NCBI GenBank assembly: GCA_973895155.1 | Contig: OZ316896.1 | Span: 23,393,722-23,457,721 of the forward strand | Direction: 5' to 3' | DNA length: 64,000 bases | DNA from: Marsupella aquatica | Taxonomy: Eukaryota > Plantae > Marchantiophyta | Program-made: the position numbers and the translations under genes | Notes under the pieces: model-generated | Database searches by the model: none | Seen by the model: the letters and a program-made list of their open reading frames with translations, nothing else | What the model was told of the DNA's origin: nothing | In this document: one piece after another, positions 3,994 through 25,422 of the stretch | How positions within the stretch are numbered: the stretch's first letter is position 1 | Layout of the letters: every line of letters starts with the position of its first letter

Positions 3994-4047
3994 GACGCAA
4001 GGATGGGGGGTGGCTGTGCCAGGATATAATTTTGGCATAGTAGGAGG

Positions 4048-7000
4048 ATGGACGGAAGGCTCAGGGTGGCATCCTGGAACGTTTGTGGACTTTGTGAGCC
4101 TAACCGTAAGCATATTGTTAAGAATTGGGTAAGATCGCTGAAGGTACCGCTGGGGATTCTGGCCCTTCAAGAAGTGAAAGCTGATCAATTTAGACTTGAT
4201 ATGGCTCTGCGGGCTATTCTCCCATCATATCAGCACTTTTCTTCTGAGCCGGAGGAGGGAAAGGGAGGAACGGCACTACTGGTACACCCTGAGCTGAGGG
4301 TGGTGGGCTCGGGAACACTGGATATGGGAAGGGCGGTATGGGCTGTGATCGAGAAGGGAGCGGTGACCTTCGGAGTTGCGTGTATATATGCTCCCAATTC
4401 AGCTAGACTAAGAGCTCTGCTATGGAATGATCTAAAGGTGATGCTACCACACAATGACTGGGTGCTGTGTGGTGACTTCAATATGACGGAACGCAGAACG
4501 GACTCGACTGGTACATCGCCGCTGATCCGCGGTAGAGAGGCTGAGTTTTGGAGATTCTTGAAGATGAGATTTAATTTGACAGACGCGTGGGACATTAGGG
4601 GAGGAGCTGCTGGCCCGCGCTTCACGTGGAGAAGGAATCGGAATGGAGAGATGTCACAGTCTTGACTCGACAGGATTTATGTTAGTGAAAGGGGAGAATG
4701 GCTTCGTGAGGTGGAACTCCTGCATGACGGGGGCTCAGCCCTTTCGGATCATGATCCTGTTATGTTGAATGTGCAGCTCTCTGGACTGACAGAGACGGTG
4801 GAGAGAGGCAAAGTGCGTCTCTTCATGGCCAACCCGGCGTTTCTACGGAGAAGGGAGGACATTCTGTGGCTGGAGGCTGCTTGGAGGGTGGGACGAGGAG
4901 ATTTTGTGGACCCGCGGCTGCACTTTGCTAAGGGCAGCTGGAAAATGCGTCAAACATTGAAGGAAATTCAAGCCCAACCAAGGACAACTGAGATGGAGAT
5001 GGCAGCTCAGCGAGCTCAGTTGCGAGTTCTTAAGATGGCCATTATAGAACACCATTCAGAGGGAGACATTGCAGAGTTCATGGACGCGGAAGACACTCTA
5101 CATGCTTCAGAGTTGGAGGAAGCACACAGAGGACGACGGCTAGCCAGAATTAAGTGGTTAAGTGAAGGAGACGAGTCAACAAAGTTTTTCTTTGCTACAG
5201 TGAGGGCTAAGCGATCTCGTGAGTCCATGCCTTCCCTGAATAGGGAGGACGGGAGTACAGTAGCTGACCCTGGAGAAATCCTGAAGGAGGTAGAAAGGTT
5301 CTGCCAAACATTATACTCGCCTGAGCCGCGATTGGAAGCGGAGTTGGAAGAGGTTCGTGTGGCCAAAGACAGACTGCTTGGCAACACGAGGTTTGCACTC
5401 TCTGGAGCGGAGAATTTGAGGATGGAGAGACTCCCGTCATACCAGGAGGTGAAGGAGGTGCTGTGGCTCCTGCCTTGTGACAAAACGCCGGGACCGGATG
5501 GCATGACAGCTGAGGTCTATAGAGCATGCTGGGAGTTTCTCGGGCAAGATCTGGTGGATATGATACAGGAGTTCTGGCTTACGGGGGCTTTGGACGTTGG
5601 AATCTGTGAAGGAATTGTGAAGTTCATACCCAAGAAACCTGATAAACGGTTTTTAAGGGACTGGCGCCCTTTGACAATGTTAAATACTATATACAAGCTC
5701 ATTGCCAAGATCCTCGCTATACGACTCAAACCGATTCTACACATGATTATTAGCCCGCAACAGACTGGATTTATACCTGGAAGACACATTCTTGAAAATA
5801 TTTCCTTAGCCTGGCTTACATGTGACTGGGTGCACAACAAGAGGAGAGAGGCATTGTTCCTAAAACTGGATTTTGAGAAGGCCTTTGACCGTGTTTCACA
5901 TGACTACTTATGGGAATGCATGCACCTACTGGGCATCAGCGGACGCTTCACTATGCTGGTCAGGGCCCTGCTAGCACAGGCATCTTCCAGGGCCTTGGTG
6001 AACGGATTACTATCAAACACATTTGAGCTTAAACGAGGGGTAAGACAGGGCTGTCCACTGTCACCATTGTTGTTTGTCATCTCCACGCAACCTCTTATGG
6101 ACTTTCTCGATACTGAGATGGCGGAGGGCCGACTTTGTGGACTGCAGATCACCCCTGGATTCACTATCTGCTATAGACTGTTTGCGGATGATGTTGGGAT
6201 GTTTATCCCGGCCACAGAGCGTGCCTTTGAGGAAGCAACCACTGCTCTAGAATGCTATGAGATGGCTAGTGGGGCGCGACTGAATCTGAAGAAATCCGTT
6301 GTGATCCCATTGGCATTGGAAAGGATCCCAGAGTGGCTGAACAACACAGGCTGCCTTATCAGCCGAAGAGGCGAGATACAGAAATACCTGGGGGCACCTT
6401 TTGGGGAGAGTTTGAGCACGGAACAACTGCACAAATTCTGTTTGGATAAGATTTGTGCCAGACTTTCTGTTTGGTCCAACAAACTTCTTTCTTTTACTGG
6501 CCGTTCACTACTGGTCAAACAGGTACTACTTGCTATCCCGATCTACCATGTAATGTATTGCAAGGCATCTGTAGGCCTGGCGAAGAAGATGATTGCTCTG
6601 AGCAGGGAATTTTTATGGGGATATAATGCCACTGGAGGACGGAAGGTCCCCCTGGTGGCCTGGGATCGGATGGCTTTGCCACGTGTGGAAGGGGGGCTGG
6701 GATTCCGGGACTTCCGCAGTCACTCTGATGCATTACTCTCTCAATGGTTCACTAAGGCACTTAACGCGCCTGAGACGGAATGGTCTAGGATGTTGGCAGC
6801 CAACCTGAAATTGATGGGGTGGACGAACTACAAAATTATTAGGCGAAATGGATACTCCTTCCAGGACCGGCTGCTACTGTGCACGCCTCGTTCATTTAGT
6901 GGGCTCCCCTACACGACAGGTCTCTGGAGAAGCTGGGAGCTAGTGAGAGCCCACTTATTCTTCGATCCTGGACGGACGGGGCCGCCTTCCCGGTGGAGCA

Positions 7001-7968
7001 TCATGGATACCCTCAAGTGTATGGTGGGCTTCAATTCCCTTCCGAATAAAGCCCTCATAGAGATTGCTGCGATTTGTGGCAGGCTGGGATTGAGGTCTAT
7101 TGGTGATGGATGGTCGACGGAGGATGGATGTTGGAAGGACCTACCGCTACGATGGCACAATATGCGTGGCTTTTCTGATGAGCATCGAACGATGGCTCGT
7201 TCGTTCTTGGAGTGCCTTTGGCGGGCAGACAATTGCCGATCTGAATACTACTTGTATGCCAAGCAGTGGAGATGGACAGACAGACCGGAGCCGCTGAAGG
7301 ACTTCAGAATCGAGAATTGTAGAGTGTATGATTTCTTAAGGCCTAAGACTGCATCCCATGACCGCCTCAATCGGATCTGGTCACTGTCCTGGCCTGAGAT
7401 GCGCTGGAATATGTGTTGGGCTAAGCTTTGGGGGTCTGATCTTCCGATTAGAGGCAAGACCTTTGTGTGGAGGATTATTGTAGGGGGCCTTTTCACTGGG
7501 GCACGTGCGCTCAGAATGGAGGTGAGTAATGGAGATTGCAAGCTTTGCAAAGGATGGCTGGAGACGATCCCCCACGTGTTCTTCCACTGTACACATGCGG
7601 TCCGTTGCTGGCTACTCTGTCAGGATTCGTTGCAGATTCTGGGCTTGCCAATGGGACGAGGTCTGATGGCTCTTTTAGAGGCGGCCTGCGGGAAGGAGCC
7701 TGTGCAAGTGGCCCGGATCTTCGTCTTGCACCATATTATGTGGCGACTCTGGACGGGAAGGAACACTCACATGTTTCAGGTGGGGGGGAGACGGGTGTTT
7801 GACTTGGGACTTGTTCTGAATGAGGCAGCGGAGAACGCTTTTGCTGTTAGTCGGCGCTGCCCCCCGGGCAGGAAGTGCACCCGCCTGATTCGGGCAAAGG
7901 CATGGATGGATGACCTGCGTAGGGTTTGGCTAGGCAGTGGCAGCATTGCTGTCAATTCTTTTGCCTAA
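4048..7968 (+). pseudogene. LINE ORF2 (AP endonuclease, reverse transcriptase, zf-RVT) with one premature stop
   Basis: SWNVCGL, LQEVK, GDFN, SDHDP, LDFEKAFD, GVRQGCPLSP, LFADD and CKLC...H..FHC motifs. In-frame TGA at 4663-4665 where S-R-LDR is expected. Confidence 0.92.
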
Positions 7969-8230
7969 GGGGGACCGTGGCTTCCTGGATGATCTGACTG
8001 TTGGATGCCCTCTTATGTTGGGCTTGGGCTTGTGTTGGTGATTGATTTTCCCTTTTCCACTGTTTGGTGGTCAGGGGGCTGTGGGATATGCGCTGGTGAT
8101 GTGTGCCTGTGCGCTGTGTGTTCGGCTTTGTTTTATGTCGCTTGGTCTGGCCTTCTGGTCTGTCTGTTTGCCCTCCCCGTGGGGCTTTTCGCGGGGGAAC
8201 CAAAAATTATAAAAATGTTCCCATTCCAAG

Positions 8231-8969
8231 GAAATGTCGGTATCTCAAGTTGCATGGGTACCAGGGCTTCTTGTCCAAAGGTTAAGAAGAAGGGTGTATG
8301 ACCGGTAGTGGATTTATAGGCAAGACTGTAAGCAAAAACAACAGCAAACAATTTATCATCCCAATCGAGTTTGTTCTGAGCTACTGTCTTGTTCAATATC
8401 TTTCCTATAATTCCGTTTGCTCGTTCTGTCAACCCATTTGCCTTTGGATGGTAGGGAGTAGTAGGCCTATGTTTAACTAAATACTGCTCATTTAAACGAC
8501 TAATTATATCATTCAAAAAATGGGTTCCTCTATCACTAACTAATTCTAGGGGTGCTCCATACCTGGTGAAGATCTGCTCATACATGAATCTAGCCGTAGT
8601 AATTGCATCATCCTTCGTTGTTGGTCTGGCCTCTACCCATTTAGTTGCATAATCCGTAGCCAGGATTATGTACTTGTTCCGTCGAGGGTGGGTCAGTGGT
8701 TTCAGAGGTCCAATGTAATCAATACCCCACTTCTCGAATGGTGCCAGAGGTAGAATAGGGTGCAGTGGATGTCTGGTGGACGCCCTTGGTCCTCCCGCTC
8801 GTTGACAAGGATCGCATTGTTTGATAAACTGATAGACATCCTTGTGCAAGGTGGGCCACCAGTAACCGGCATTTAATATCTTCTTAGACGTGGTTACTGG
8901 GGCAAAATGTCCTCCGGCCTCCTCTCCATGCATGGCCCGTAGGACTCGTTTTACCTCTCTCTTTTCCAA
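8231..8969 (-). pseudogene. Gypsy integrase HHCC and catalytic core, element 1
   Basis: H..GGHF...CDPCQR, WGIDYIGP, LVSDRGTHF and YHPKANGLTER motifs. A frameshift lies near 8960-9000. Confidence 0.92.
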
Positions 8970-11056
8970 ACACCTTTGAATCGTGCCGTTGATTCCATGC
9001 TTGTGAGTATGCCTTTAATGCACTGATACTGTCTGACCTTCCGCACAAAGACTGCGGCTTGCTCTCGGCTTAATCCTGGCTGTAATCTGGAAGTGCTGAG
9101 AAATTGTAAAATCTCAGGGTACCATGTATCAGCTATTTCCACAACGAATAGCTCCTCGTCGGGGAATCGATCATCGATGCAATCCGTGGCAGGTTTACCT
9201 GTGATCCTTGAAAAGAAGTCGGCATTGGCGTGTAACTTTCCCGGCTTGATCCTCAGCTCATAGTCAAACTCCTGTAATAGCAAAATCCATCTTGCTACTC
9301 TGCCTGTAAGGTCCGGCTTATTGACTAGGTACTTCAAACTTTCATGATCGGTATGAAAGATTACCTTGTACCCTAGTAAATAATGCCTAAACTTTTTACA
9401 AGAATAAATGACTCCTAATGCTTCTCTCTCTGTGGTGGAGTAGTTCCGTTCGGCATCGGCAAGCTGACGACTTGCGAAGTATATGGGATGGTCCCTTCCT
9501 TTCTCATCCAACTGACTTAGTACTGAGCCGATACAGAAGCCCGAGACATCTACAAAAACATGAAAATCTTTGTTCCAGTCCGGTGCTATCATGACTGGGG
9601 CCTCTACTAACATCTGCTTCAATTCTACCACCGCTGTGACTCGTTCGGGTGTGGGTTCGAAGTCTGCTCCTGCCTTGAGCATGTTGGTTAATGGTAAAGC
9701 TAGCTTGGCAAAATCCTTGATGAACCGGCGATAGTAACCAATGCATCCCAAGAAGGATCTTACATCCTTTATGTTCTTAGGTTGCATGATATCTAGCCAT
9801 ACTGCTAGCTTACCTTTGTCAATCTCAATGCCCTTCCTTGATACCTTGTGACCTAGTAGCACCCCCTCGGTTACTGCAAAGAAACATTTATCTGGGTGTA
9901 ACTTGAGACCCACCTCTCTACATCTCATGAAGGTTTTCCTGAGGTATTTAACATGTTTCGATGCCTTCCCGAATACTGCAAAGTCATCAATGAAGATTTC
10001 CATGAACTTTCTCAAGTAATCATGAAAAATGTTCACCATTAATCGTTGAAACATAGCTGGTGCGTTGCAGAGTCCAAACGGCATACGATTGAAGACATAG
10101 ATCCCCCATTCCGTGATGAAGGCCGTCTTGATTTGGTCTTCCTGCCGAATCCTGATTTGGTTATAACCAGAGTATCCATCCATGAATGAATATAGTTCAT
10201 GACTGGCTACCATGTCTAGTACCATATCAGTAAACGGTAAAGGAAAATGGTCTTTTAATGTTGCTTCATTCAGCTTCCTGTAATCCTGACAAACCCGGAT
10301 CTTGGGTTTACCATCGGGTCCAGCTTTCTTGGGAACTATCACAATTGGAGACACCCAGTCTGAATGCAGGACTGGAGTGATGAATCCAGCTTCCACTAGT
10401 TTGTCGATTTCTATTTTGACCAGCAGGGAATACTTCGGGTTCATCCTTCGAATTGGTTGTCGAAATGATTTGGCTCCTAACATGAGATCAATTCGATGTT
10501 CCCCTAGTGTTGGATCTACTCCCTTTAGATCTTGGTGACTCCATGCGAACACATCCTGAAATTCAATCAATAAGTCACTGATCTCTTTCTCGAGCTTAGG
10601 TGCTAGGTTTCTCCCTAAGTTCAGTTCTCTTCCCTCTCCTAAGTCGAGCTTCCGATATTGCCGTGCTTGGATCATATTAATCTGCTTCTTCAAATTCGGG
10701 TCCAGTTCGGCTTCCAGTCTCTCCAATCTCATACCTCCATAAACTGGAATCTCGGCTGGACTAGCCGAGTCAGTCCCTTCCTTGGTGTCCATAGATTGTC
10801 CCCTTGCCGGTCTATTCGGTTTTGAATTGGTGGTCGGCTCCCCTTCCTGCCTTGGCTCTGGATTGTGTCTGTCCATCTCATCCACCTCTTGCTCCTGAGA
10901 GTCAGGCCGCTGTGCTCTCTCGGCTTCTAATAGGGCCTCAATTTGTTCTGCCCTCGTAATCGGCTTGTATGCCGATCCCTTGGTATTTAATTCCTTGCCG
11001 ATGATCGATGGCGTTGTGAACCCTGCCGGCTCTGCCACAACGCCTGCAGAAAATCC
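8951..11056 (-). CDS. Gypsy pol: reverse transcriptase and RNase H, element 1
   Basis: RVCQDYRKLN, MDGYSGYNQI, MPFGLCNAP, FIDDF, VDVSGF and YSTTEREAL motifs. Confidence 0.93.
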   Translation of the reverse strand, partial: GFSAGVVAEPAGFTTPSIIGKELNTKGSAYKPITRAEQIEALLEAERAQRPDSQEQEVDEMDRHNPEPRQEGEPTTNSKPNRPARGQSMDTKEGTDSASPAEIPVYGGMRLERLEAELDPNLKKQINMIQARQYRKLDLGEGRELNLGRNLAPKLEKEISDLLIEFQDVFAWSHQDLKGVDPTLGEHRIDLMLGAKSFRQPIRRMNPKYSLLVKIEIDKLVEAGFITPVLHSDWVSPIVIVPKKAGPDGKPKIRVCQDYRKLNEATLKDHFPLPFTDMVLDMVASHELYSFMDGYSGYNQIRIRQEDQIKTAFITEWGIYVFNRMPFGLCNAPAMFQRLMVNIFHDYLRKFMEIFIDDFAVFGKASKHVKYLRKTFMRCREVGLKLHPDKCFFAVTEGVLLGHKVSRKGIEIDKGKLAVWLDIMQPKNIKDVRSFLGCIGYYRRFIKDFAKLALPLTNMLKAGADFEPTPERVTAVVELKQMLVEAPVMIAPDWNKDFHVFVDVSGFCIGSVLSQLDEKGRDHPIYFASRQLADAERNYSTTEREALGVIYSCKKFRHYLLGYKVIFHTDHESLKYLVNKPDLTGRVARWILLLQEFDYELRIKPGKLHANADFFSRITGKPATDCIDDRFPDEELFVVEIADTWYPEILQFLSTSRLQPGLSREQAAVFVRKVRQYQCIKGILTSMESTARFKGVWKRER
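10997..11056 (-). promoter_or_regulatory. Candidate -1 ribosomal frameshift signal (element 1)
   Basis: G GAT TTT, a 5-nt spacer, then stem GGCGTTGTGG/TCACAACGCC. The loop GCCGG can pair with downstream TCGGC. Pol is in the -1 frame. Confidence 0.7.
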
Positions 11057-11147
11057 ACTGTCCCTGCTACTGCTCCCCACTTAGCCGTTTCATCCAATTG
11101 GTCTACATCCTTTACTTCCTCCGGAATTGCAGCTAAAAAGGTGGATT

Positions 11148-13043
11148 CTATTGTAAAGCAGTCCTCGACCTCTTCGTCTTCTTCTTCCAAGTCACCTTCC
11201 ATTGGTTCTTGCCATAATCCGCTGGGGGGTACCTCTGTATTGCCGGAGCCCTCCCTTCTCCTTCCGTTGATGTTGACGAAGAGTCCATCTTTTCCTCCGT
11301 AACCTTCCCTTTATTTTTGGCCAGCCCATCCCACCTTTCCTTCCTTCTGGTAGATCGAGTAGAGACCCGGTAGCAATCATGATCTAAATCCTCCTCTGAG
11401 AAGGTTGATAGGGCTTCGGCCTCATCATCAGATGGTACGAACTCTGCCTCGGCATCCTCTTGCCATCCTAGTTCGATGTGGTTGATTTGAACTCCTCCGG
11501 GGGTAGTACCTGGCGGTAAGATCTTGACCGGCAAAAGTTTATGATTTGCGGCCAGGCCTGCCAACCAAGTAGGACATTGCCCTAGCATATGACCTTCCTG
11601 TCGGCATCCCATACATAGCTGAGCTGGTTGTCCATCACCCTGTTTGCGTGCATTCGGGCATTCTCTAGCAAAATGGCCAGGTTGACCACAATTATAGCAC
11701 GCCGCAAATCTTTGCACATTCGGCCTAGGAGGTACTGACGGGTTCTGAATAATCCGAGGATACATCTCTCCTGGATTGTTCCTTAACCCTGACCATAGAG
11801 ATGCAGGTCTGTTGGATAGGTCTTGTGCTCCAGTCTCACTGATGCCGAAAACACTATCAGCAGCATCTCCTAAAAAGTACTCTACTTCTCCCTGACATGG
11901 TCTGATCTCGGCCACATGCCGAACATGATTAGTATTAAGCTTAGGACACGCATCTTTATGGTGTCCGGTTTTATAACATAAGGCACACCATACAGAGCTA
12001 TCCTCCTGTACTACCTTCTTCTTCGGTTTTACCTCTACAATGATAGCCTTAAGTTGCTCGGTAAGGGCTACGATGTTATCTGGTGGCTTAGCCTCCAGCT
12101 TGACTTTCGTCTTCCCTCTCCTTCTGCCCTTCCTTTTGGTAGTTTTTTCTTCTTCAGAACTAGAAGATGACTCACTCTTGCTACTCCCACTATCCGAGCT
12201 TGACTTATCACTTCTAGACTTCTTAGAATGTTTCTTCTTCTTATCTTTTTTCTTATGGGGTGATCCCTCTTCTGATGAGGAACTCTCAGACTTAAGCTGT
12301 TTCTTCCGGCTTGTGATATCTGCATTAATGTATAATTGAATATCCTTAATTGCTTCGGCTAAAGTCTCCGGGTTCTCCTTCCTAATTGCAAAACTCATCT
12401 TCTGTGGCAAAGCATTCACCAACCATTGAAGTTGCATACCTTCAGATGCATTGGTCTTTGTACGTCTTACCAGTTTCTGAAAGCGTTGCAAGAACTTCCT
12501 GAAGGATTTGTTCTCCTTGAACCGAAGTCGTCCCAACTTCGGCACTGCTAGTTCTGAAGTTCCAATTGGTCGAAACTCCTTAACAAAGAGTGTTTTGAAG
12601 ATATCCCAGATGGCTTGATCTTCCACATCTAATGCTCTGTACCAAGGCCTAGCCTCACCCTTGAACAGGCCGGGAAGAATCTGCATCTTGATGGCCGATT
12701 CTCCATTTGCTGCAGCGGTTCCCTCGAAATCATCCAACCATTCGTCCGAATCCTCATCTCCTCTCCCATGAAATGCCTTGTAATGTATGCGCGACCGCTG
12801 GCTCAATCTGGTCCCTGGCCTCTCGTCTGGCCGTGCCTCTGGTTCCCCCATGTCGGTTGGAGACTCACTTCTCCTTACCGACTCTTCTTCTGGTATGTCT
12901 TCTTCGACGCCACTTCCAGTTTCGGAGCTACCAGCTCTTTCTGCCCCTCTCAGTCGCTGTGTATCATGCCACCCGGCAAGCTGCTGCAGTCGAGCTCTCT
13001 CCCGTTGAATCACTCTTTCTTCCCTCGGCGTAAGGTCAGTCAT
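11148..13043 (-). CDS. Gag with three CCHC zinc knuckles; 3' end corrupted by a deletion that removes the protease
   Basis: Capsid-like FHGRGDEDSDEWLDDF...GEARPWY. Knuckles CALC..GH..DAC, CYNC..GH..REC and CMGC..GH..GQC. Confidence 0.9.
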   Translation of the reverse strand: MTDLTPREERVIQRERARLQQLAGWHDTQRLRGAERAGSSETGSGVEEDIPEEESVRRSESPTDMGEPEARPDERPGTRLSQRSRIHYKAFHGRGDEDSDEWLDDFEGTAAANGESAIKMQILPGLFKGEARPWYRALDVEDQAIWDIFKTLFVKEFRPIGTSELAVPKLGRLRFKENKSFRKFLQRFQKLVRRTKTNASEGMQLQWLVNALPQKMSFAIRKENPETLAEAIKDIQLYINADITSRKKQLKSESSSSEEGSPHKKKDKKKKHSKKSRSDKSSSDSGSSKSESSSSSEEEKTTKRKGRRRGKTKVKLEAKPPDNIVALTEQLKAIIVEVKPKKKVVQEDSSVWCALCYKTGHHKDACPKLNTNHVRHVAEIRPCQGEVEYFLGDAADSVFGISETGAQDLSNRPASLWSGLRNNPGEMYPRIIQNPSVPPRPNVQRFAACYNCGQPGHFARECPNARKQGDGQPAQLCMGCRQEGHMLGQCPTWLAGLAANHKLLPVKILPPGTTPGGVQINHIELGWQEDAEAEFVPSDDEAEALSTFSEEDLDHDCYRVSTRSTRRKERWDGLAKNKGKVTEEKMDSSSTSTEGEGRAPAIQRYPPADYGKNQWKVTWKKKTKRSRTALQ

Positions 13044-13090
13044 TACCTACGCTTCCGTTCTAACTTCATATCTCACGGCTTAAGAAATGC

Positions 13091-13108
13091 CCCCTCCATC
13101 TAGCGCCA
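13091..13108 (-). other. Primer-binding site, tRNA-Asn-like
   Basis: TGGCGCTAGATGGAGGGG lies 4 nt from the LTR end. It matches my recollection of the plant tRNA-Asn 3' end (CCCCTCCTTCTAGCGCCA) with one mismatch. Confidence 0.75.
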
Positions 13109-13112
13109 AAAA

Positions 13113-15343
13113 TGTGGTGCGTCCCATGGCTCCCTAAACCCAAGAAACCCCCCAGCTCAAGCCGATTCCCGCAGGTTTTGCGCTTGGCGAGGCCGTTTCC
13201 GCGGCTTAGCGGCATGGGACGCTGCTAACCTCTACTACTACTGTTAACATTTTACACACATATACTGGACAGATCCTTCATCGGGTCATGAGATACGTAG
13301 CCGGCCTAATCTAGGCCTTCCCCTGTCTTCCCCTCCATCTTGTTAGGTATGTTTGGATTCCACGGCCGGAATGATCCCCAATAGGCTTGGTTAAGCCGCT
13401 AAGACCTCTCTTAGCTCGACACATCCAACTCTCACTCCCCTGCTTACTTTCCTTCCTTCTGGTTGATGTGGGCACTCTTCACACAAGTTAATGCGACACA
13501 CAAATAGCAAAATGACTCATTCTGACTGAGTCATACCATGCACTTGCCATATAAACAGTACATCTCATACACAAGCTCTGCGAACTAAGCCGTGAGGCCA
13601 ACTCTATTCAGCTCTTAGGCATGAGGAAACATGAATATACACAAGGGTCACTGTATGACTAACCGAGAGCTTCTCGTACTACTTGATCCCAGCCCGGCTG
13701 GTGCAAACTAAAAACTTGCTAAAGAAGAGGCCCTGAGCTCCCCGCTGCCCAGGTACTTATCCTGGTAGTGGATCCGCCATTCTTTGCATCGTAAGCCTAA
13801 TCTACCTAACAGTAATCTACTTGCCCGAATCTACCTATGTACAGCAAGGCAGGAGCACAAGTGTTGCTCCTACCAGTGGAACCGCAATCCCACTAAGCTA
13901 AGTGTCAGGGCCGCTCCTGGTCCTGATCCTAATCCTAAACTTGGAGATCAGCGCCCGCCCTGCCCACTCACGCCTCCTCCCTCCACGTCCGCCCTCCCTA
14001 AAAGGAACGGCGCCCTTGCACCGTCACGACACCGGTGGAGGATCCTTAATGGACGCCCCCAACGCTTCCTCCTCAGCCACTGCCGTAGGTTCATTCTCTG
14101 ACAGATTACCTGCCCTTGACTGAGTCAACTCTCCATCGGCCTGACTGGGTCCACCATCGGCGTCGGCATCGGCTCGGGAATCGGTTACGGCCTCAGCCTC
14201 GGCTACGGTCTCCCCAGCCTGCTCAAGAGGCGGATCTGGAATACCGGCCTCATTACTGAGTAGTTCGGCTTGGGCCGCACCACCCCCACCTATGATGATA
14301 GCGGGATCTATTGCCGTATTCATGCCGGAGGATGGTGCTGGTTCTACCTCCTTGGTCACCACGGCTTGTGGAGTCGGATTACTCCTTGACCCTGAAGGTT
14401 TCCGCTTTTTCTTCTTTTCTGGTTCGGCAGCTGGTCCCTTCCCCTTCCCACTTACTTCCGGCACTGGTGCAGGTGGCGCGGCTTTTTCTTTGGCCAGTAC
14501 CACTCCTGGTAACTTGGTTGCCCCAATTGGAGTTGGGCCTGATGAAGACAAGCACTTAAATACTGCGGCTTGTTTCTTCAGCCGCTCCGTTTGGTTGTCG
14601 GCCCGCCGCTGGAGGTTCTCCATCTTCCTCGTGATTTCCTCCAACTCCTCCTGGGTCTCATCCAGGTCCTTGCATGCCTCCTCTAGTTCCTTCTGGGCTT
14701 CCTCCTGTTCTTGTTTCAAGGTAGTCCTCTCCTCCCGGGTTGCTCTTAGCTCCTTGTCGAGCTCTGCAATGATGACAGACTCCATCTGGTTCATCTTGGC
14801 GTAAGTCTGTTCGAGCATCTCGTCCTTCTCCCTTAGGTCGGCCTTGAAGCTGGCCGTCAGGGACGCAAGCTCCTGCTGCAGCGCCATAATCCCTTGATAG
14901 GATTTCCCTAACTCGGCCTCCTTCTGCTCAAGGGCTCCGCGGATTTTCTCGAGCTCCCCCTTCAACGCCCATTCCTTTCTTTGGGTCTCCGCCATGGCCC
15001 GGCTGTTGGCTGTTATGTGGGCCTCCTCTGTATTCTTCAGCTCTTGCTTCCACTTCTCCCTCTCTTTGATCATGTCGGCCAACTCTCCCTGCGTCTGAGT
15101 CAGTTTATCCTTGATATTCTGATTATCAGCCTGCGCGGTGTCCAACTGCCCCTGCATGATGTTCAGCTCATGTCGTTTAATCCGCAGTTCATCTTGGGCT
15201 TTCTTGGCCGCCCTTAGATCTTCAATCTCGGCTTCCATCCTCCTAAGCCGCCGAATGACCTCGTCCTTCTTGCTTCTCTCTAAAGCCACCGCTTCTTCTA
15301 ATTGGTGCTTCTCCAACTGCTCCCTATGGAAAAAGGGTCCTAC
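13113..15343 (-). repeat. 5' LTR of element 1 (3' half only)
   Basis: Ends ...GGACGCACCACA next to the PBS. Near-identical to the reverse complement of about 23190-25422. Cut at 15343 by the family-B LTR. Confidence 0.92.
14024..15343 (-). pseudogene. C-terminal coiled-coil part of the LTR-encoded protein (truncated)
   Basis: The 430-aa ORF is nearly identical to the last 430 aa of 21136-24510. Confidence 0.88.
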
Positions 15344-18300
15344 TGTGATGCCGCCGGTACGGCGGTTAATGAGTGATTCAGTCTAACTGCGCTCGGCACG
15401 CGCGTTAGGTGGGTCTTAGGCCGCTATTCTTAGCATAACGATAGTATTTAGGTAATCATTAGGGGTAGGACATCATTAGGCAATAAGGGGGACTTCAGGT
15501 TCGGGCTGGCGGCGGGTCGCTATTCGCACACCCGGATTACGAGCGTGGAGGGGCCCCTCCCTCGGGTCCGTATAACGAACTTAAGGAAGCGGCCACTGAC
15601 GCACGCTGACTCAGACCGGCGGAGTGGCCGGTACACCACAAGCATGAGCGGTTCAACCTACGGGCGTCGAGGAGACGTCGGGGATCGACAAGCCCTCAAA
15701 GTATAAAAGGGGAGCCAACCCTTTGTAGTGCACCAGTCCATCAGTCCGCGCGCCAGCTTCGACCCCAGCTCTCTCGTTCTCTCTAGGTCGCCACTACTAT
15801 CTCCTCTGAATGTCGCACACGATCCTCTCCAGCTCGGCCATTTGATTCTGGACGCAGTTCCTAGCTACCGGAAGGCACTTGGCCGATTCATTGAAACACG
15901 CCAACCCGCGCTGATACGAGATCGAACGCGAATACGAGAGAGCCATCCGCCTAGCAGGACGACACCACTACGTCCTTAACTTTGACTACCCGTCTCAGAG
16001 CGAGCTTTACCGACCAGCTGAGGTATCTAGGTACTTCTTCAACAGAGACAAATATATCGGGTTCTGGGAAGCATTGCTTCGGCTTCCGGACGAGGTCTTC
16101 AATATCCCGGGTACAATCGACCTGCAGCGACATCACTTCGACCACATCCCTGCCCAGGTTTGGGCTGTCATTAACGGCGAGTCCAGTACCAACCGTTCGA
16201 CAAGGGCATCCGTACTCGCTTCAGAGAACTTCTACCAGCACCTGCAGAGCTTCATGGGAACTCGGCCATCAACCAACATGACCAACTCAGCCGGGCCCGT
16301 ACCCGTACCCGTACCCATACCCGTGCCCATGCAACCCCAGCCTCAACCTCAGCTTCAGCTTCAGCCGCAGCCTCAGCCTCAGCCGCAGCCTAGCCAAACC
16401 CCACCACCTATCACCCAGCCAGCACAGGTACGCTCTGTCATCAACGCTGTGGATCTTAGCGATGACGACGAGGCTACCCCACCCTTGACCAGGCGGCCCA
16501 GAGGAACAAGCGCTCGGGGGGCCGACACTATATCGTCCCCACCCCCTGCTCTGACCCCAGGAGCGGCCCCAGCAGACAACATAGTGACCGTGGCCGCCCC
16601 GGGCCCGTTACCAACCGCAGTGGCACTCCCCAGGCCCGATCGGGAGGATGGGGAAGTATCACCTTCCCCGAGTCAGTCACGGGGAAAGAAGAGGAAGGAA
16701 TCCGCCACTGCGTCCGGGTTACCGTTGGCCACGGTAGCCGTAGCCAAGGTGACGATGCATCGCATGGGGGAAAACGTTCATAGCAACATCCTCCATCCCA
16801 AGCATGCGGTGTACCTGAAGACTCAGGGATTTGAGCACCTCACCTCTCTCCCCTGGAACACTTGCAGGTACTACGGGGAGGACATGACAGAATTCGTCAA
16901 GAATTATGACGACGTATGTCAATAGACTCGGCTGCGGGGAAGGAATATGTCCCTCACAGAAGAACGGCTCAAGATGATCTTCGGGTTACCCGAAGGTGAC
17001 CATCAAGTCGAATCACGGGCTCCCGGGGGCAAGGGGGCCAAGTACCAATCTTCAAGTTTTCCCTCAGAGGGATCAGTAGACAACGGGTTCGTGATGAGGA
17101 CCTGCCTCATGCCCGAGATAGCTGAGCGGCTGGAGTTCCAGAGGTACGCTCTCCACATGATGGAACCCCGGGGGGAGATCTCCGCCGCCCAGGTTATCCA
17201 GGTCGAGAACTATCGACCTAGGAAATGGGCGTCGTACTTCGCTAAGAAATTCCATGAAGAGATGGAGCGGCGAAGGAAGACGCTGTACATTGGCGGGAAG
17301 GCGTATTTCGCTAGCCACATCGAAATCATTCTTGAGTGGTACGCCCGGTTTGATCGACGAACCCTTCCCCGCATCAACGTTACAAAGCTGGTCCCAGCTA
17401 GGTGGGTTTTTCCGGCATTGGAGAGACGGCCCCAACCCGAGGCCCGAAGTCCAGTGGACACGCCAGCTTCACCCACCCCACCTCCACAAATAGCTGTAAT
17501 CGTAACCGAGGAGGCGCCGGAGGGGTCGGTCGTCGCAACCGTTGATGCGACCCAACTAGCCGGGCTAAGTACAGAAGTTGGTACGGCAGAGGTCTTACCC
17601 GAACCCGGGTCTCCCAAGGACCCGTCGGTGGCAATTCCGGAGAACCGGACATTGCTGCAGGAGGACACTCCAGCCCCTTCCAACGTTATGTCCCCAGGGC
17701 TGGACGTCACTGCCCCGGCCCCTGCGCGTGTTGATGTCTGCCCGTGCCCAAATCCGGACAGGCACAACTTGGACCACCCAGAACTCTTCGTACAGGGTAC
17801 GTTTTTGAACGGGCTTCTGGGAGATTTCTCTCATCAAATTGCCCGGGATACCGGGGAGTTCATGGCCCGGAAGGTAGCCTGTTTCTTCAATCAGGAGTTG
17901 GTTGCCGCCGTAAAGGCAGGTCGGGCCCAGTCGGAGGCCCTTCAGAGGATAGAGCGGTACCGGGTGGAGTCCGTGTACCTAAAGAATGAAGTGGCGGCTC
18001 AAGAGGCTGAGCTTCTGCAACTGCGACCCAAGGTTGCAGCCGCCGATGAGTTGTTAGCAAAGGCGTACGCTCTTACCGCCCTAGCCGAACAGGCCAAAGC
18101 TGGGAACGAGGCCGAGATTACACGACTCCGGAACCAGATTGACAGTTTGAAGAAACAAGCTGTCACCTGGCAGAAAGACCTGGAGGAGGCCGAGGAGCGA
18201 GCCCAGCGGGACGCGACGGAGATAGCCACGCTGCAGGCCGAGATGGCGCGGCTCCAAACCGAGGCCGAGAAGCAGGACCAGCTGGCGGGTAAACTGACGA

Positions 18301-19379
18301 GCGACGCCCAGCAGTTGGAGGAGGCATGTCAGGAGGTAGCAGAGGAGACGGACGCGGCGAGGCGAGAGAACGAATCTCTGCTGGACCAGGTCCAGCTCCT
18401 CAAAGCGGACAATGACAGGCTTCGAAGGCAGCGGGATGGCCGTTCCCATTCGGGCGGCTCTGGCAAGCGTGCTAGGCATTAGCGGCGGAGTAGGAATAGA
18501 TTAGGATTAGGATTGGCTTAGTCAGGCTCTTGGGACAGGCACCTGCCTTAGGTACAGCAGCGCTGCCCTGCTGTCTAGCCTGCGTAGATTAGGATCTTCT
18601 AATAAGACACAACCATTTTCCGGCCTGACTGTCAGCTTAGTTAGGACCTTAGTCAGCGAATCTTCGGCGAGAGGACACCCCGTCCCTCGGCTCTTAGTAT
18701 TTAGTGCACCCCTCGGTAGAGGCAGGGGGGGTTTTTAGTTTCAGAGTCGGACATCCGCGGGACATGCGGGGAGTCCCGACCTCTGGGAATGACAGAGTAC
18801 CAAGGGGAGGGGGTAGGACTAAGCTCGTCGGGCGAGTGCGGAGCCGGGCTCCGTTGTAGTGTGCACCCTCGGCCTTGAACCTGTGCATTCCAGGGCTGTC
18901 GTGTCAACTAAGTGTACGCATATGTTCCCTTTGTAGTAAAATCCTTTCCCATCATTTTCCTTCGTGTAAATCGAGATTGTATGCATGTGTGCGCATATGT
19001 GTGTGGGTTTCTCGTATATGGGTGGCAGCGCCAGGCCGAACGCACTACCCGAGACGTGCATAGGGTGCAGCCTGTGGGTAAGTGGTTGCGAGCACGGGTT
19101 GAGGACCTATATCATCGAATCCGGATCGAAGGTGGACAGCACGAAGGCTTAGAAGCCCTTAAGCCGGGGTCGATCCTGCTATCGACTAAGGTACGTTCCG
19201 GCGGCGGAACACAAACCATACCTAGGAGGTGTCCATATTTAGCAGTATGCGCACTTAGCGCTAGTTTACGAGAATAAGGTGCATTACGTGCTTCCCTTCC
19301 TGCCCGAACCCTCAGATTTACGAGGGATGTGCCCGTCTAAGCTGAAGTCTGAGTTAAGGCCGAAGCCTACGACGTGACA
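15344..19379 (+). repeat. 5' LTR of a family-B gypsy element (about 4.0 kb)
   Basis: Starts TGTGATG exactly where family-A homology breaks. Ends CGTGACA and is followed by a PBS and gag. The right end is slightly uncertain (12-nt gap to the PBS). Confidence 0.8.
15810..18482 (+). pseudogene. Family-B LTR-encoded protein (about 890 codons, three premature stops), homolog of the family-A LTR protein
   Basis: ATG 15810 and ORFs 16074 and 16947 are all in one frame. Motifs LPW..EFV..TRLRG..LTEERLKMIFGLP..NGF..TC align to family A. C-terminal coiled coil. Confidence 0.8.
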
Positions 19380-19391
19380 TAGCCTTTGTTT

Positions 19392-19409
19392 TGGTGCTAG
19401 ATGGAGGGG
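19392..19409 (+). other. Primer-binding site of the family-B element (tRNA-Asn-like)
   Basis: TGGTGCTAGATGGAGGGG, one difference from the family-A PBS. Confidence 0.75.
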
Positions 19410-19502: not shown

Positions 19503-19900
19503 ATGCCCGTCACTCGTGCTCAAGCAGCTTACTTGAGGAGATTGACCAGCGAACGAGAAAGTGCAACCACAACAAGCTCCGACTCGTCGGGCTCGGAGGA
19601 CTCGCAATCGTCCCGACGTATGAACATACCCCCGGGATCTTCGGGGTCTGGTTCGACCGGCCCTGCTGCGGTTCCACCACCACCACCACCACCACCACCT
19701 ATGGCAGCCGCTCCACCGGTGGCCCGCGCTGCTCAGGCGCCTCCACAAATATCACAACGATCGCGATTTCATTATCGACCTTTCAAAGGGCGTCATGGGG
19801 ATGATCCGGATGAATGGTTGGATGAGTTTGAAGCCACTGCTAAAGCTAATGGGGAAGACGCCATTAAGCTAACCGTCCTCCCGGGAGTGATGCGGGGAGA
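19503..19900 (+). pseudogene. Family-B gag N-terminus, truncated by a deletion junction
   Basis: SQRSRFHYRPFKGRHGDDPDEWLDEFE aligns with family-A gag SQRSRIHYKAFHGRGDEDSDEWLDDFE. Confidence 0.85.
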
Positions 19901-20758: not shown

Positions 20759-23700
20759 TGTGATGCCTAGACAGGAATCACTCGGCCAGTTAAGTGGGTA
20801 AACCAGGAAGGCACCCTAGGAACACCTTAGTATAGGGACAAAACAAGGAAAATATAAACCATTAGGGGCAACCATGGAACCCGGGCCGAGGCCGGAGGTA
20901 AGGACGCTGAGGGTGAAAACTCGATTAGGGTTAGGGCGCGTTAAGCGTCGGCAGCTAGGAAGGATCAACGGGAAGAAGGACCGGCAGAGGAGAGGGGTAA
21001 GGAGCGCTTGCAGGAGATGGTGGCTCATATTGCGAGCACGAACTAGGCAGACGACTACGGGAGGCCAACTACTGTCAGCTGCTTAGGCAAGCACTCGGGG
21101 AGAGAGTAGATATCGACGATCGACCTAAGGAGGGTATGAGCAACGTCAATCAAGCGGCACATTTCTGGGGATGCCTGTTCGAACGGGCAACTGAGTACAT
21201 CAAGACTTACGAGGACGAGGAATCAGAAAGGGCAGCTCGAGAACGGCAGGAGCTCGCTCGATTGTGGGAGCTGCAGAAGACGGCTTTCTTAGGAGGCGAA
21301 CTCATCAAGGACGAGTTCCTGTGGACGCCTACTTCCAATCAACTCGACGATCTTCTGTTTTGCAAAGACAGCGTCGTCGGCATCCAAGAGGCCATCAAGA
21401 ACTGCAACGACATACACTGGGAATTAAAGGGAAGCACGGAAAGGTGGACCCAGGCAACGGTGCTAGGAGAAACCTCCACGGCAGCAGGGATGAAGAGGAA
21501 GGGAGCCGTCAACGATGAAGCCACCCCGACAAAAAGAACGAGGTCAGCGGCACCAAAGAAGCCAGCCGAGCAGCAGAGCAGGAGGCAGGGAGAAGCCGAA
21601 GAGGAGGAGGTCGATCCCATCAAGGCCATTCCAACCAGGGATGACACCTGGAAGGGCTGGGCGGCAACCCTACCGGTGGAGGTGCAACTACATTTTGCAC
21701 GGGAGGAGGATGCATGCTTCACGGCCATGCAGACCAAGAAGTACCAAGGCTTCATGGCCGGATCCGGCTTAGAGGCCTTTGTAAGATTACCATGGCTGAA
21801 GCCGGAGGTACCGGAGTCAGACCTATTAGAATTCGTGGGGTCATGGGAACCCGAGACCAATTGCACGAGGATATATGGGAAGGATTTCTATCTTACTCCC
21901 AAGGTAATTGCCGAAGTGTTTGGCTTGCCGATAGGCAATAAGACCAAAGTTGATACCAGGAAGACCTTGCCTGACAAGGAGTTCCGGTCGTTCCCTGGGC
22001 CATCAACGAAGAATGGCTTCTTCCGGAACACCTGCACCAACCCGCACATAGGAGAGATGATCGACTTCTTGCGGGTGACCATGCATTGTAACTTGCCGAG
22101 GGCAGAGATCGGCAAGGCACAGGTCTATCTGGCAGAAAGGCCAGACCCAAGCCGGGACTACAACGGGTACCTCCTCAACCAATTGAAGAAGATCTTAAGG
22201 GAGGAGCAGCAGGTAATCGGCATGGGGAGCGTGTCGCGGCTTGGCTATCACATGCCGCTGTTGTGCCGGTATGCCAGAGGTCAGACTTTTGCCCCGGTAC
22301 TCCCCCTGCAGGTAAGGGCACCCGAGGAAGCTCCAACGCCGAGGCCGTTGGCTGAGAAGCCTCAACCACCTGTTAGCCCTACGATCGAGCAGGTGTTTAG
22401 ACCCAGGAAGGAGGACTTGCCGATGCAGCAACCAGGCATGCAGAGTCTGCTGAAACTACTGGAGAAAGAAAAGAAATCGGCATCGGCAACAACAACGGCA
22501 ACGGCAACAATGCAGGACACTACTACAGAGGTAGGCCTACACCGGCTCACAAGAGAAAACCCCTTTGCTGGAGACAAGGAGAGAATCAGGCCGGAATCCA
22601 AGCCAGGTGTTCGAATGTACGTGGGAACCTCAAGCTCTGAATCTGAGGCAGAATTGCCTGAAGCTCCTACCGACGAAGAGGAGAGGGAGAAGCCGGACGT
22701 CCAAGAGGTAGAGGAGGCAGTGGAGGACTGCAGCCATGATAATTCCGGCTATGGGTCGGACCATCACGTTCCAGGAGTAAGGACCTGTGGCCGGTTTGTC
22801 CCCACACTTCCAAGGGTAGTGCGAGGGGACCCCAACCAGCAGAGTAGCCCTGAGTCTCCCCCACCAGATGTTGCTCCCCCGAGCTTCGACGGCATAAAAC
22901 AGACGGTGCAGGAATTTCAGGAGCGAATCAGGCAGGAAGAGGAGGCAGCCCTGGCTAGGGAAAAGGATTTACCAGGAGGAGATTGGCCGGAGGACATCAG
23001 GTGGCTAGCCGAAAAAGGAAGCAAACCTCTAGCCACGATTGAAGAGATCCGCAGGACGGCTTGGGAGCAGAGGCCGCGATGGGCGATGCCGATCACTTCT
23101 ACTTACTCCACCTACGCTAAGAATAGAGCCATGGAGTATGGTGAGATGTGTGGGGAACTTGCGCTCGGCATCTTTGGAGAGGAGTTGGAGGTAGGACCCT
23201 TTTTCCATAGGGAGCAGTTGGAGAAGCACCAATTAGAAGAAGCGGTGGCTTTGGAGAGAAGCAAGAAGGACGAGGTCATTCGGCGGCTTAGGAGGATGGA
23301 AGCCGAGATTGAAGATCTAAGGGCGGCCAAGAAAGCCCAAGATGAACTGCGGATTAAACGACATGAGCTGAACATCATGCAGGGGCAGTTGGACACCGCG
23401 CAGGCTGATAATCAGAATATCAAGGATAAACTGACTCAGACGCAGGGAGAGTTGGCCGACACAATCAAAGAGAGGGAGAAGTGGAAGCAAGAGCTGAAGA
23501 ATACAGAGGAGGCCCACATAACAGCCAACAGCCGGGCCATGGCGGAGACCCAAAGAAAGGAATGGGCGTTGAAGGGGGAGCTCGAGAAAATCCGCGGAGC
23601 CCTTGAGCAGAAGGAGGCCGAGTTAGGGAAATCCTATCAAGGGATTATGGCGTTGCAGCAGGAGCTTGCGTCCCTGACGGCCAGCTTCAAGGCCGACCTA

Positions 23701-25422
23701 AGGGAGAAGGACGAGATGCTCGAACAGACTTACGCCAAGATGAACCAGATGGAGTCTGTCATCATTGCAGAGCTCGACAAGGAGCTAAGAGCAACCCGGG
23801 AGGAGAGGACTACCTTGAAACAAGAACGGGAGGAAGCCCAGAAGGAACTAGAGGAGGCAGGCAAGGACCTGGATGAGACCCAGGAGGAGTTGGAGGAAAT
23901 CACGAGGAAGATGGAGAACCTCCAGCGGCGGGCCGACAACCAAACGGAGCGGCTGAAGAAACAAGCCGCAGTATTTAAGTGCTTGTCTTCATCAGGCCCA
24001 ACTCCAATTGGGGCAACCAAGTTACCAGGAGTGGTACTGGCCGAAGAAAAACCCGTGCCAACTGCACTAGTGCCGGAAGTAAGTGGCAAGGGGAAGGGAC
24101 CAGCGGCCGAACCAGAAAAGAAGAAAAAGCGGAAACCTTCAGGGTCAAGGAGTAATCCGACTCCACAAGCCGTGGTGACCAAAGAGGTAGAACCAGCACC
24201 ATCCTCCGGCATGAATCCAGCAAAAGATCCCGCTATCATCACAGGTGGGGGTGGTGCGGCCCAAGCCGAACTACTCAGTAATGAGGCCGGTATTCCAGAT
24301 CCGCCTCTTGAGCAGGCCGGGGAGGCCGTAGCCGAGGCTGAGGCCGTAACCGATTCCCGAGCCGATGCCGACGCCGATGGTGGACCCAGTCAGGCCGATG
24401 GAGAGTTGACTCAATCAAGGGCAGGTAATCTGTCAGGGAATGAGCCTACGGCAGTGGCTGAGGAGGAAGCGTTGGGGGCGTCCATTAAGGATCCACCACC
24501 GGTGTCGTGACGGTGCAAAGGCGCCGTTCCTTTTAGGGAGGGCGGACGTGGAGGGAGGAGGCGTGAGTGGGCAGGGCGGGCGCGGATCTCCAAGTTTAGG
24601 ATTAGGATCAGGACCAGGAGCGGCCCTGACACTTAGCTTAGTGGGATTGCGGTCCCACTGGTAGGAGCAACACTTGTGCTCCTGCCTTGCTGTACATAGG
24701 TAGATTCGGGCAAGTAGATTACTGTTAAGTAGATTAGGCTTACGATGCAAAGAATGGTGGATCCACTACCAGGATAAGTACCTGGGCAGCGGGGAGCTCA
24801 GGGCCTCTTCTTTAGCAAGTTTTTAGTTTGCACCAGCCGGGCTGGGATCAAGTAGTACGAGAAGCTCTCGGTTAGTCATACAGTGACCCTTGTGTATATT
24901 CATGTTTCCTCATGCCTAAGAGCTGAATAGAGTTGGCCTCACGGCTTAGTTCGCAGAACTTGTGTATGAGATGTACTGTTTGTATGGCAAGTGCATGGTA
25001 TGACTCAGTCAGAATGAGTCATTTTGCTATTTGTGTGTCTCATTAACTTGTGTGAAGAGTGCCCACATCAACCAAAAGGAAGGAAAGTAAGCAGGGGAGT
25101 GAGAGTTGGATGTGTCGAGCTGAGAGAGGTCTTAGCGGCTTAACCAAGCCTATTGGGGATCATTCCGGCGGCGGAATCCAAACATACCTAACAAGACGGA
25201 GGGGAAGATAGGGGAAGGCCTAGATTAGGCCGGCTACGTATCTCATGACCCGATGAAGGATCTGTCCAGTATATGTGTGTAAAATGTTAATAGTAGTAGT
25301 AGAAGGTTAGCAGCGTCCCATGCCGCTAAGCCGCGGAAACGGCCTCGCCAAGCGCGAAACCCGCGGGAATCGGCATGAGCTGGGGGGTTTCTTGGGTTTA
25401 GGGAGCCATGGGACGCACCACA
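20759..25422 (+). mobile_element. Family-A solo LTR, 4664 bp
   Basis: TGTGATG...CACCACA ends with 5-bp TSD ACCGG (20754-20758 and 25423-25427). Both ends match the PPT-adjacent and PBS-adjacent termini of the proviruses. Confidence 0.95.
21136..24510 (+). CDS. Intact 1124-aa LTR-encoded protein (PMD/Transposase_32-like core, basic NLS-like clusters, long coiled coil)
   Basis: Uninterrupted ATG-to-TGA ORF wholly inside the solo LTR. Contains LLEFVGSWEPETN...LTPKVIAEVFGLPIG, KRKG..PTKRTR and KKKKRKP. No obvious transmembrane segment. Confidence 0.88.
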   Translation: MSNVNQAAHFWGCLFERATEYIKTYEDEESERAARERQELARLWELQKTAFLGGELIKDEFLWTPTSNQLDDLLFCKDSVVGIQEAIKNCNDIHWELKGSTERWTQATVLGETSTAAGMKRKGAVNDEATPTKRTRSAAPKKPAEQQSRRQGEAEEEEVDPIKAIPTRDDTWKGWAATLPVEVQLHFAREEDACFTAMQTKKYQGFMAGSGLEAFVRLPWLKPEVPESDLLEFVGSWEPETNCTRIYGKDFYLTPKVIAEVFGLPIGNKTKVDTRKTLPDKEFRSFPGPSTKNGFFRNTCTNPHIGEMIDFLRVTMHCNLPRAEIGKAQVYLAERPDPSRDYNGYLLNQLKKILREEQQVIGMGSVSRLGYHMPLLCRYARGQTFAPVLPLQVRAPEEAPTPRPLAEKPQPPVSPTIEQVFRPRKEDLPMQQPGMQSLLKLLEKEKKSASATTTATATMQDTTTEVGLHRLTRENPFAGDKERIRPESKPGVRMYVGTSSSESEAELPEAPTDEEEREKPDVQEVEEAVEDCSHDNSGYGSDHHVPGVRTCGRFVPTLPRVVRGDPNQQSSPESPPPDVAPPSFDGIKQTVQEFQERIRQEEEAALAREKDLPGGDWPEDIRWLAEKGSKPLATIEEIRRTAWEQRPRWAMPITSTYSTYAKNRAMEYGEMCGELALGIFGEELEVGPFFHREQLEKHQLEEAVALERSKKDEVIRRLRRMEAEIEDLRAAKKAQDELRIKRHELNIMQGQLDTAQADNQNIKDKLTQTQGELADTIKEREKWKQELKNTEEAHITANSRAMAETQRKEWALKGELEKIRGALEQKEAELGKSYQGIMALQQELASLTASFKADLREKDEMLEQTYAKMNQMESVIIAELDKELRATREERTTLKQEREEAQKELEEAGKDLDETQEELEEITRKMENLQRRADNQTERLKKQAAVFKCLSSSGPTPIGATKLPGVVLAEEKPVPTALVPEVSGKGKGPAAEPEKKKKRKPSGSRSNPTPQAVVTKEVEPAPSSGMNPAKDPAIITGGGGAAQAELLSNEAGIPDPPLEQAGEAVAEAEAVTDSRADADADGGPSQADGELTQSRAGNLSGNEPTAVAEEEALGASIKDPPPVS

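Follow-up and report, generated by a model that had tools for sequence, protein, structure and literature searches.

A gene inside the long terminal repeats of liverwort Ty3/gypsy retrotransposons, with a predicted VANC21-like core

The DNA considered here, referred to as the window, is a stretch of 64,000 nucleotides from the liverwort Marsupella aquatica (assembly GCA_973895155.1, contig OZ316896.1, positions 23,393,722 to 23,457,721, forward strand) and consists of a nest of plant retroelements. Two families of long terminal repeats (LTRs), called A and B, are distinguished by a large protein-coding gene, referred to below as the LTR gene, which lies inside the LTR in family A and apparently also in family B. 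The family-B unit at 15344-19379 and the sequence directly behind it, including a primer-binding site (PBS), comprise the following features, numbered from the first base of the window.

15344-19379, plus strand: family-B 5' LTR, 4036 bp, bounded by TG...CA, sitting within a family-A LTR
15702-15708, plus strand: TATA-like box 108 bp upstream of the ATG, a candidate promoter of the LTR gene on sequence grounds
15810-18482, plus strand: LTR gene, 890 codons ahead of its terminal stop codon; in this copy, 15843, 15912 and 16923 are premature stops
15831-16169, plus strand: N-terminal helical "FW" domain of about 110 aa, common to family A and Calypogeia proteins, matching no known fold
16686-16697, plus strand: basic motif KKRK, residues 293-296, a candidate nuclear localisation signal
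16737-17354, plus strand: conserved core of about 205 aa, whose family-A homolog has a predicted VANC21 fold
17910-18430, plus strand: coiled-coil-type region, residues about 700-875, from sub-threshold Pfam coiled-coil matches and composition
18465-18479, plus strand: second basic motif, read in the sequence at the C-terminal end of the protein
18698-18731, plus strand: candidate promoter of the genomic RNA, a TATA-like word with a C-run/G-run motif, common to family C
19190-19227, plus strand: motif close to the LTR 3' end, common to families A, B and C
19392-19409, plus strand: PBS, one base off the family-A PBS
19521-19899, plus strand: start of family-B gag, interrupted at 19899 by an A-LTR fragment

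The initial annotation had taken the family-B frame for a homolog of the family-A protein, and the alignments bear this out. With stops read as X, the B core is identical to the family-A core at 53 of 185 residues (29%), with an E value of 8e-20 and a z of 34, and its Smith-Waterman score of 191 compares with 55 at most among 2000 shuffles. The core segment submitted to this test was picked after the match was known, whereas no such choice preceded the test of the whole proteins, which score 219 where 300 shuffles reach at most 81. The little nucleotide similarity between A and B outside short motifs, also part of that annotation, is found again: blastn shows only short common motifs, the non-coding LTR parts align no better than shuffles (101 against a maximum of 110, and 180 against a maximum of 214), and a faint signal is left in the DNA of the core (194 against a maximum of 148 in 100 shuffles). 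The FW motif (residues 13-14 of the B frame), KKRK, the coiled coil and the motifs quoted at the time as matching the A protein are all present in the frame, and long low-complexity linkers occur in the LTR protein besides the coiled-coil-type region.

The frame of family B contains three internal stops (TGA 15843, TGA 15912 and TAG 16923), compared with 22-38 over the same span in the other five frames. A chance open reading frame (ORF) was rejected. Each stop is a single transition, as had been proposed in the form of C-to-T changes, and is private to this copy, since 96.4-100% of the summed contig depth differs at these positions (runs X3 and X4, 15300-16960). The contigs used here and below derive from among the seven public runs of five studies that contain the stretch wholly or partly; no RNA run is listed among the runs containing it, which has no bearing on expression. 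The stop-free protein P0071 (906 aa) shows 29% identity to the B frame in an alignment covering residues 8-889 of the latter (E 9e-98). Thus, from the private stops and this collinear stop-free relative, the gene of the B family is open, with the present copy having decayed after insertion. The same two elements, a frame that is open in other copies and a collinear protein without stops, point indirectly to purifying selection on the B gene.

The case for the B unit as an LTR carrying the gene is strong but incomplete. Its first 9 bases are those of an A-LTR start, and they stand where an A LTR is cleanly interrupted; upstream of 15344, the flanks of other copies are unrelated (9, 10 and 12 contigs by run, agreement 0.41-0.45). 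Its last 7 bases, CGTGACA, are those that end a solo LTR of a third family, C, flanked by a target-site duplication (TSD). The LTR end is followed by a PBS and then by gag, the order that characterizes Ty3/gypsy elements. The PBS pattern has three matches in the window, compared with none in 100 shuffles, and the B gag is identical to the A gag at 32 of 50 residues (64%). The B PBS is presumably tRNA-Asn-like, and no tRNA gene is present in the window for comparison. Summed contig depth stays within one order between 15344 and about 19300 and is about 4- to 12-fold lower beyond the PBS in all four of four runs (medians taken by eye, depth being no measure of copy number), a drop that an excess of LTRs over internal regions would produce.

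The unit might instead be a rearranged piece, in which a shorter LTR was fused to 3' internal sequence bearing the extra ORF, the gene-in-LTR arrangement then being limited to family A. This is very improbable. It would suit a single B copy in the window that ends at 19899 and has no TSD, in a unit that no contig of the public runs covers as a whole, and it would suit a PBS placed 12 bases beyond the CA end instead of 4 as in family A, a spacing that counts against the LTR status of B. The A-type LTR start at the insertion point, the varied flanks in other copies, the even depth that falls after the PBS and the absence of an inner direct repeat from the B unit argue against it, as does the identical layout of family A, where TSDs are present. 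Family A is represented by the following features, which include a polypurine tract (PPT), reverse transcriptase (RT) and RNase H (RH).

1-15343, minus strand: family-A Ty3/gypsy element with gag, RT-RH and integrase, both of its LTR parts containing gene pieces
1-1815, minus strand: 3' LTR part of this element, the PPT lying within the integrase end
13091-13108, minus strand: PBS of this element
13113-15343, minus strand: 5' LTR part of this element
20759-25422, plus strand: solo LTR, 4664 bp, TG...CA, 5-bp TSD
21136-24510, plus strand: LTR gene of 1124 aa without internal stop, core at about 21676-22290
40981-45631, plus strand: second solo LTR, TG...CA, 87% identical, 5-bp TSD, with a broken gene

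In family A, the gene is inside the LTR. The family is assigned to Ty3/gypsy by its gag, the order RT-RH-integrase, TG...CA LTRs, PBS, PPT and TSD; Pfam places the domains concerned, gag, RT, RH and integrase, between 8133 and 13046 of the minus strand. The LTR parts at both ends of the element are 98% identical, one lying before the PBS and the other behind the PPT. The integrase is split by a long interspersed nuclear element (LINE) at about 2275-7968. This LINE is of the L1 type, near-complete (DUF4283 ORF1, endonuclease, RT, zf-RVT) and opposite in orientation to the integrase. No Pfam match to a chromodomain or an additional RNase H was obtained in the RT-RH and integrase frames, the integrase end lying outside the scan. 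The RT motifs presumably resemble those of Athila. Athila, or a basal Tat devoid of the additional RNase H, both non-chromovirus OTA lineages, would be candidate placements for family A.

The family-A LTR gene is under purifying selection. The ratio of nonsynonymous to synonymous substitution rates (dN/dS) is 0.10-0.17 for the core among the family-A copies of the window (6 pairs). For the N-terminal domain, it is 0.17-0.45 in five diverged pairs and 0.81 in a further pair, near-identical and differing by 4 changes, and over all common codons it is 0.16-0.49 (13 pairs, which are not independent). Between the two A elements, the corresponding values for gag, RT-RH and integrase are 0.05-0.07. 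Between A and B, the LTR-gene core is 29% identical compared with 64% for the gag stretch. The LTR gene thus evolves faster than gag, so that the low identity between A and B overstates its age; evolution faster than that of gag and pol also fits a role in conflict. The gene had initially been described as ancient, selected and lineage-defining rather than recently captured. Selection stands, directly in A and indirectly in B, and so does the absence of a recent capture, whereas an ancient age as an LTR gene and the definition of a lineage remain conjectural. The gene is common to two deeply diverged families, and recent capture of a host gene was rejected.

The position of the gene may be explained by the end of pol. 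The family-A integrase frame continues across the PPT and meets its stop codon 3 codons inside the 3' LTR (1804-1830, minus strand), and the LTR gene begins about 380 bases after this stop, the element having no 3' untranslated region. In plants, extra ORFs are described as lying mostly between pol and the 3' LTR (PMC7264820, PMC6317226), a slot that falls inside the LTR in family A because the integrase runs through the PPT into it. In the ancestral state, a sense extra ORF would have stood behind pol. By the simplest route, plus-strand priming would then have shifted to a purine tract at the integrase end, upstream of the ORF, and the region would have become U3, the unique 3' portion of the LTR. 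A gene within U3 is carried by every LTR, solo LTRs included.

Relatives of the core were searched exhaustively among 1.84 billion representatives with a profile of the four window cores, giving 69 matches at E 0.001 or better and 24 at 1e-10. Thirty of the 69 were looked up, and the 11 named ones are all from liverworts, nine from Calypogeia fissa and two from Riccia sorocarpa. Word-indexed protein searches, a method nearly blind here, returned nothing for the B core, nothing among long proteins and one hit by profile. The FW-motif N-terminal domain is conserved in B, in A and in six relatives, which were chosen for having it. In a tree of 35 cores, from which 17 of 52 rows with under 140 aligned columns were left out, A and B fall in separate groups (the tree being unrooted and its base unresolved). 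The Riccia matches are weak (E 2e-6 and 5e-5), long-branched and annotated with a DDE_Tnp_4 piece, and for these reasons they may not stem from LTRs. No relative was confirmed by viral and metagenome scans with an alignment, and the PBS pattern was found at no viral locus and at one metagenome locus that matches neither the profile nor the window.

Two groups among these relatives call for separate mention. In P0046 and P0057, both from Riccia sorocarpa, the core is preceded by the DDE_Tnp_4 (Harbinger-type) piece, either through a fusion of gene models or through presence of the fold on a DNA transposon. P0014, P0023, P0030, P0035, P0049 and P0052 form a supported separate group whose members start at the core and are devoid of the FW domain; the fuller ones measure 278-489 aa and are candidate domesticated MAIN-like host genes.

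The family-A core was modelled from an alignment of 52 rows with a pLDDT (predicted local distance difference test) of 93.8. Foldseek places a VANC21-DNA crystal structure at rank 1 (E 2.0, template modelling (TM) score 0.52), the other rows listed being at 0.18 or less. With the VIA aligner, VANC21 is the sole chain of 48,161 with a Z of at least 5 (Z 8.7, root-mean-square deviation 3.9, 199 of 205 residues), the next reaching 2.4; the sister VANC21 entry gives a Z of 8.8, and 198-199 of 205 residues are covered over both entries (PDB 9lnj, 9lnk). The match was given weight despite a common Z of 7-8 because it covers the whole domain, stands alone, concerns an accessory protein of a plant transposon and agrees with sequence leads. 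A VANC21-like fold is thus moderately supported for the core, on the strength of the family-A model. Together with the absent 3' untranslated region, it goes beyond the initial annotation and gives a testable function and origin.

The sequence leads are Transposase_32 (0.89) and ATHILA (0.87) in Atlas, which count as leads only, and weak Transposase_32 matches in 3 of 29 relatives over the same stretch of the profile (E 0.006, 0.006 and 0.23; best 17 bits against a cut-off of 45). Transposase_32 is called related to Athila ORF1 in PMC11728184. Pfam names nothing in the window cores, the best PDB sequence match has an E of 0.068, and the viral fold library gives nothing at E 0.001 or better (best E 0.017, TM 0.34). 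The model of the N-terminal domain (pLDDT 75) has no fold match, the best Z being 4.4.

These weak Transposase_32/ATHILA leads, the sense orientation behind pol and the env-like proposals described in PMC7264820 would suit an env-like or particle-associated protein, as was once proposed for Athila extra ORFs. Such a nature is highly improbable for the LTR protein. Its basic motifs are of a nuclear type, nothing in the viral fold library matches it at E 0.001 or better, and no hydrophobic transmembrane helix was found in four proteins, in which the best 19-residue hydropathy is 0.82-1.26. An env-like membrane protein was rejected for want of this helix.

VANC21 is described as binding a 9-base motif located in non-coding DNA of the transposon that encodes it, and as demethylating family by family (PMC5735166). 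VANC is reported as structurally homologous to MAIN, a protein of the plant mobile domain (PMD) group, and models show it, like the Athila domain, as a coiled-coil oligomer (PMC13547354). For the liverwort gene, a comparable sequence of events is proposed. The gene would be transcribed from the TATA box close to the 5' end of the LTR, and the protein would be imported into the nucleus via its basic signal, oligomerise through the coiled coil and bind short motifs of the flanking non-coding LTR sequence, with silencing marks being lost in trans. A protein made from the TATA box at 15702, nuclear and oligomeric, that binds the LTRs of its own family and keeps them open is the reading preferred here, with a probability of about 0.55. 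The reality of the gene and of its architecture is well supported, and an anti-silencing function is likely in view of the modelled core.

The candidate targets of such a protein were sought in the non-coding LTR parts (15344-15809, 18483-19379, 20759-21135 and 24511-25422). The word TTAG ranks first among the 4-mers of the non-coding LTR parts of A and B, with 19 and 20 occurrences where about 7.5 would be expected (maxima of 15 and 13 in shuffles), an enrichment found post hoc. It is strand-biased, reaching 14.7 per kb in these A and B parts compared with 3.3 in the remaining window, and occurs at 1-2 per kb within the LTR genes. A third family, C, adds to the comparison.

36145-38623, plus strand: family-C solo LTR, 2479 bp, 5-bp TSD, without LTR gene, inside an A-LTR fragment
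36513-36648: 26-bp tandem array in family C

The 3' part of family C aligns with the sequence behind the B gene (279 against a maximum of 218 in 100 shuffles). Family C, which serves as a natural control, has LTR motifs in common with B, yet no such gene, which it may have lost or never had. Tandem arrays were seen in this family and in one other A fragment (45665-45707). As a separate observation, family C might depend on the B or A protein as a non-autonomous client.

Several points weigh against a family-specific anti-silencer encoded in the LTR. As to the fold, the Foldseek E is only 2.0, the identity to VANC21 is 8-10%, the Z of 8.7 is near the 7-8 common for models without kinship, and the modelled core is that of family A, not B. 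PMD, DUF1985, ATHILA and Transposase_32 are matched in Pfam at E 0.001 or better by none of the 69 relatives. A common fold alone shows no function, and the same fold in MAIN is reported to promote silencing (PMC5418596). VANC targets form family-specific tandem repeats, and none is present in the B flanks or the main A flanks: tandem repeats are absent from the non-coding B LTR and from the A solo LTR at 20759, and the enriched TTAG is common to A, B and C and also occurs in the 45665-45707 array. As to the architecture, a second B LTR, a TSD and a B pol were not seen in the window, whose sole B copy is cut at 19899, and the purine tracts that lie behind the gene in A and B include none that is clearly an old PPT.

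The lack of family-specific target arrays in A and B would be expected if the same gene and fold acted instead as a decoy or adaptor on host chromatin proteins, in a MAIN/MAIL-like complex, blunting silencing without any choice of DNA sequence. PMD proteins are indeed described as working in complexes with PP7L (PMC8616336), PMDs borne by transposable elements have been proposed as counter-silencers (PMC5418596), and the long low-complexity linkers and coiled coil would be in keeping with such a partner. The sole structural match, however, is a DNA-bound protein, and the core has conserved basic columns (95, 128, 133 and 142, with 57-75% K/R), which may contribute to a DNA-binding surface. A decoy of this type is considered rather improbable.

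The basic signals and a fold of the DNA-binding type suit the proposed anti-silencer as well as another role, that of a transactivator or of an integration tether steering new copies into related LTRs or heterochromatin. The nesting in the window would be compatible with steering, as B and C both lie within family-A LTRs and A LTRs are nested in each other. A single window is, however, no test of insertion bias, and nesting of elements is common in repeat-rich regions. A DNA-binding protein of this kind that is no anti-silencer is judged unlikely.

The anti-silencing reading invites comparison with known systems. VANC21 from Arabidopsis VANDAL21 (PDB 9lnj, 9lnk; PMC5735166) has the same core fold as predicted here over 199 of 205 residues. 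Like the LTR protein, it is a transposon-encoded accessory protein with a coiled coil, as described in PMC13547354, and combines a conserved domain with variable low-complexity regions. VANC21 belongs to a Mutator-like DNA transposon, whereas the LTR gene resides on a Ty3 LTR retrotransposon. The LTR protein differs further by its low identity to VANC21 (8-10%), by an extra N-terminal domain and by the family-specific tandem target arrays, which were not seen for it. VANC is presented as dicot-specific in PMC13547354.

Athila ORF1/Transposase_32 (PF03078, PF20167; OTA Ty3/gypsy) likewise corresponds to a sense accessory ORF behind pol, here in a Ty3 element with no chromodomain match in the frames scanned, and is the object of the weak leads mentioned above. 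These ORFs are described in the internal region (PMC7264820, PMC6317226), whereas the LTR gene lies behind the PPT and in TSD-flanked solo LTRs; the LTR protein stays below the Pfam cut-off for them (17 bits against 45) and has no transmembrane helix. PMD (PF10536; Gypsy PMD-A, MAIN/MAIL1) is tied structurally to VANC in PMC13547354 and is borne by Gypsy elements according to PMC5418596. Its link with the LTR protein is indirect, through VANC21, as 0 of 69 relatives have a Pfam PMD match, and PMC8616336 describes PMD as angiosperm-only. The LTR protein is thus not a VANC by membership, its element being of another class, nor an Athila ORF1 or PMD at the Pfam level, and it likely works like one of them.

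Two further systems resemble the LTR gene by architecture. The sag gene in U3 of mouse mammary tumour virus (MMTV) is likewise described as a selected gene inside an LTR, kept in solo LTRs and serving as a deep LTR marker (PMC4667437). It belongs to an animal retrovirus and encodes an unrelated protein with an unrelated role, whereas the present gene occupies 2.7-3.4 kb of LTRs of 4.0-4.7 kb. Retrosat2/RIRE3 also combine LTRs over 3 kb with an extra ORF, ORF0, which PMC3485330 places upstream of gag-pol in the chromovirus (Tekay/Del) lineage and with which homology is not expected. In the literature covered on LTR genes and liverwort anti-silencing, which includes few subscription papers, no case of a selected gene of 2.7-3.4 kb inside a plant LTR was found, MMTV sag being the nearest.

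What the extra ORFs of plant LTR retrotransposons do is presented as an open question in PMC7264820. The origin of PMD and VANC, from a transposon or from a host gene, is called fully open in PMC5418596, whereas PMC13547354 favours a capture of MAIN by VANDALs. A VANC fold in retrotransposons of non-seed plants would be older than seed plants, would exceed the stated range of PMD and VANC and would allow the origin to be tested directly. Solo LTRs, usually counted as dead remnants, remain coding and could act in trans. Annotation that takes LTRs as non-coding would miss the gene family, and the LTR gene provides an alignable marker for deep LTR history. A broader and doubtful conjecture, offered tentatively, is that a sequence-specific anti-silencing gene in U3 of liverwort Ty3/gypsy elements makes each of their many solo LTRs a self-contained, demethylase-recruiting cassette, and that VANC and MAIN were later derived from this retrotransposon branch of the VANC/PMD/Athila-ORF1 fold, which would be older than seed plants.

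Apart from these families, the window contains several other features. Pieces of a pentatricopeptide repeat (PPR) gene of the PPR-E-E+-DYW type, corresponding to RNA-editing factors, lie at 51092-52505 on the minus strand and are split between frames. A 59-bp tandem repeat is present in 4 copies at 48437-48673 (99%). At 58073-60302, a frame of 513 codons has a weak kinase match (E 0.002) and may be akin to the Crinkler-like kinases found in non-seed plants. At 35512-35862, an A-LTR fragment contains an AT-rich insert of 350 bp, inverted over a short length at its ends, which is possibly a miniature inverted-repeat transposable element (MITE).

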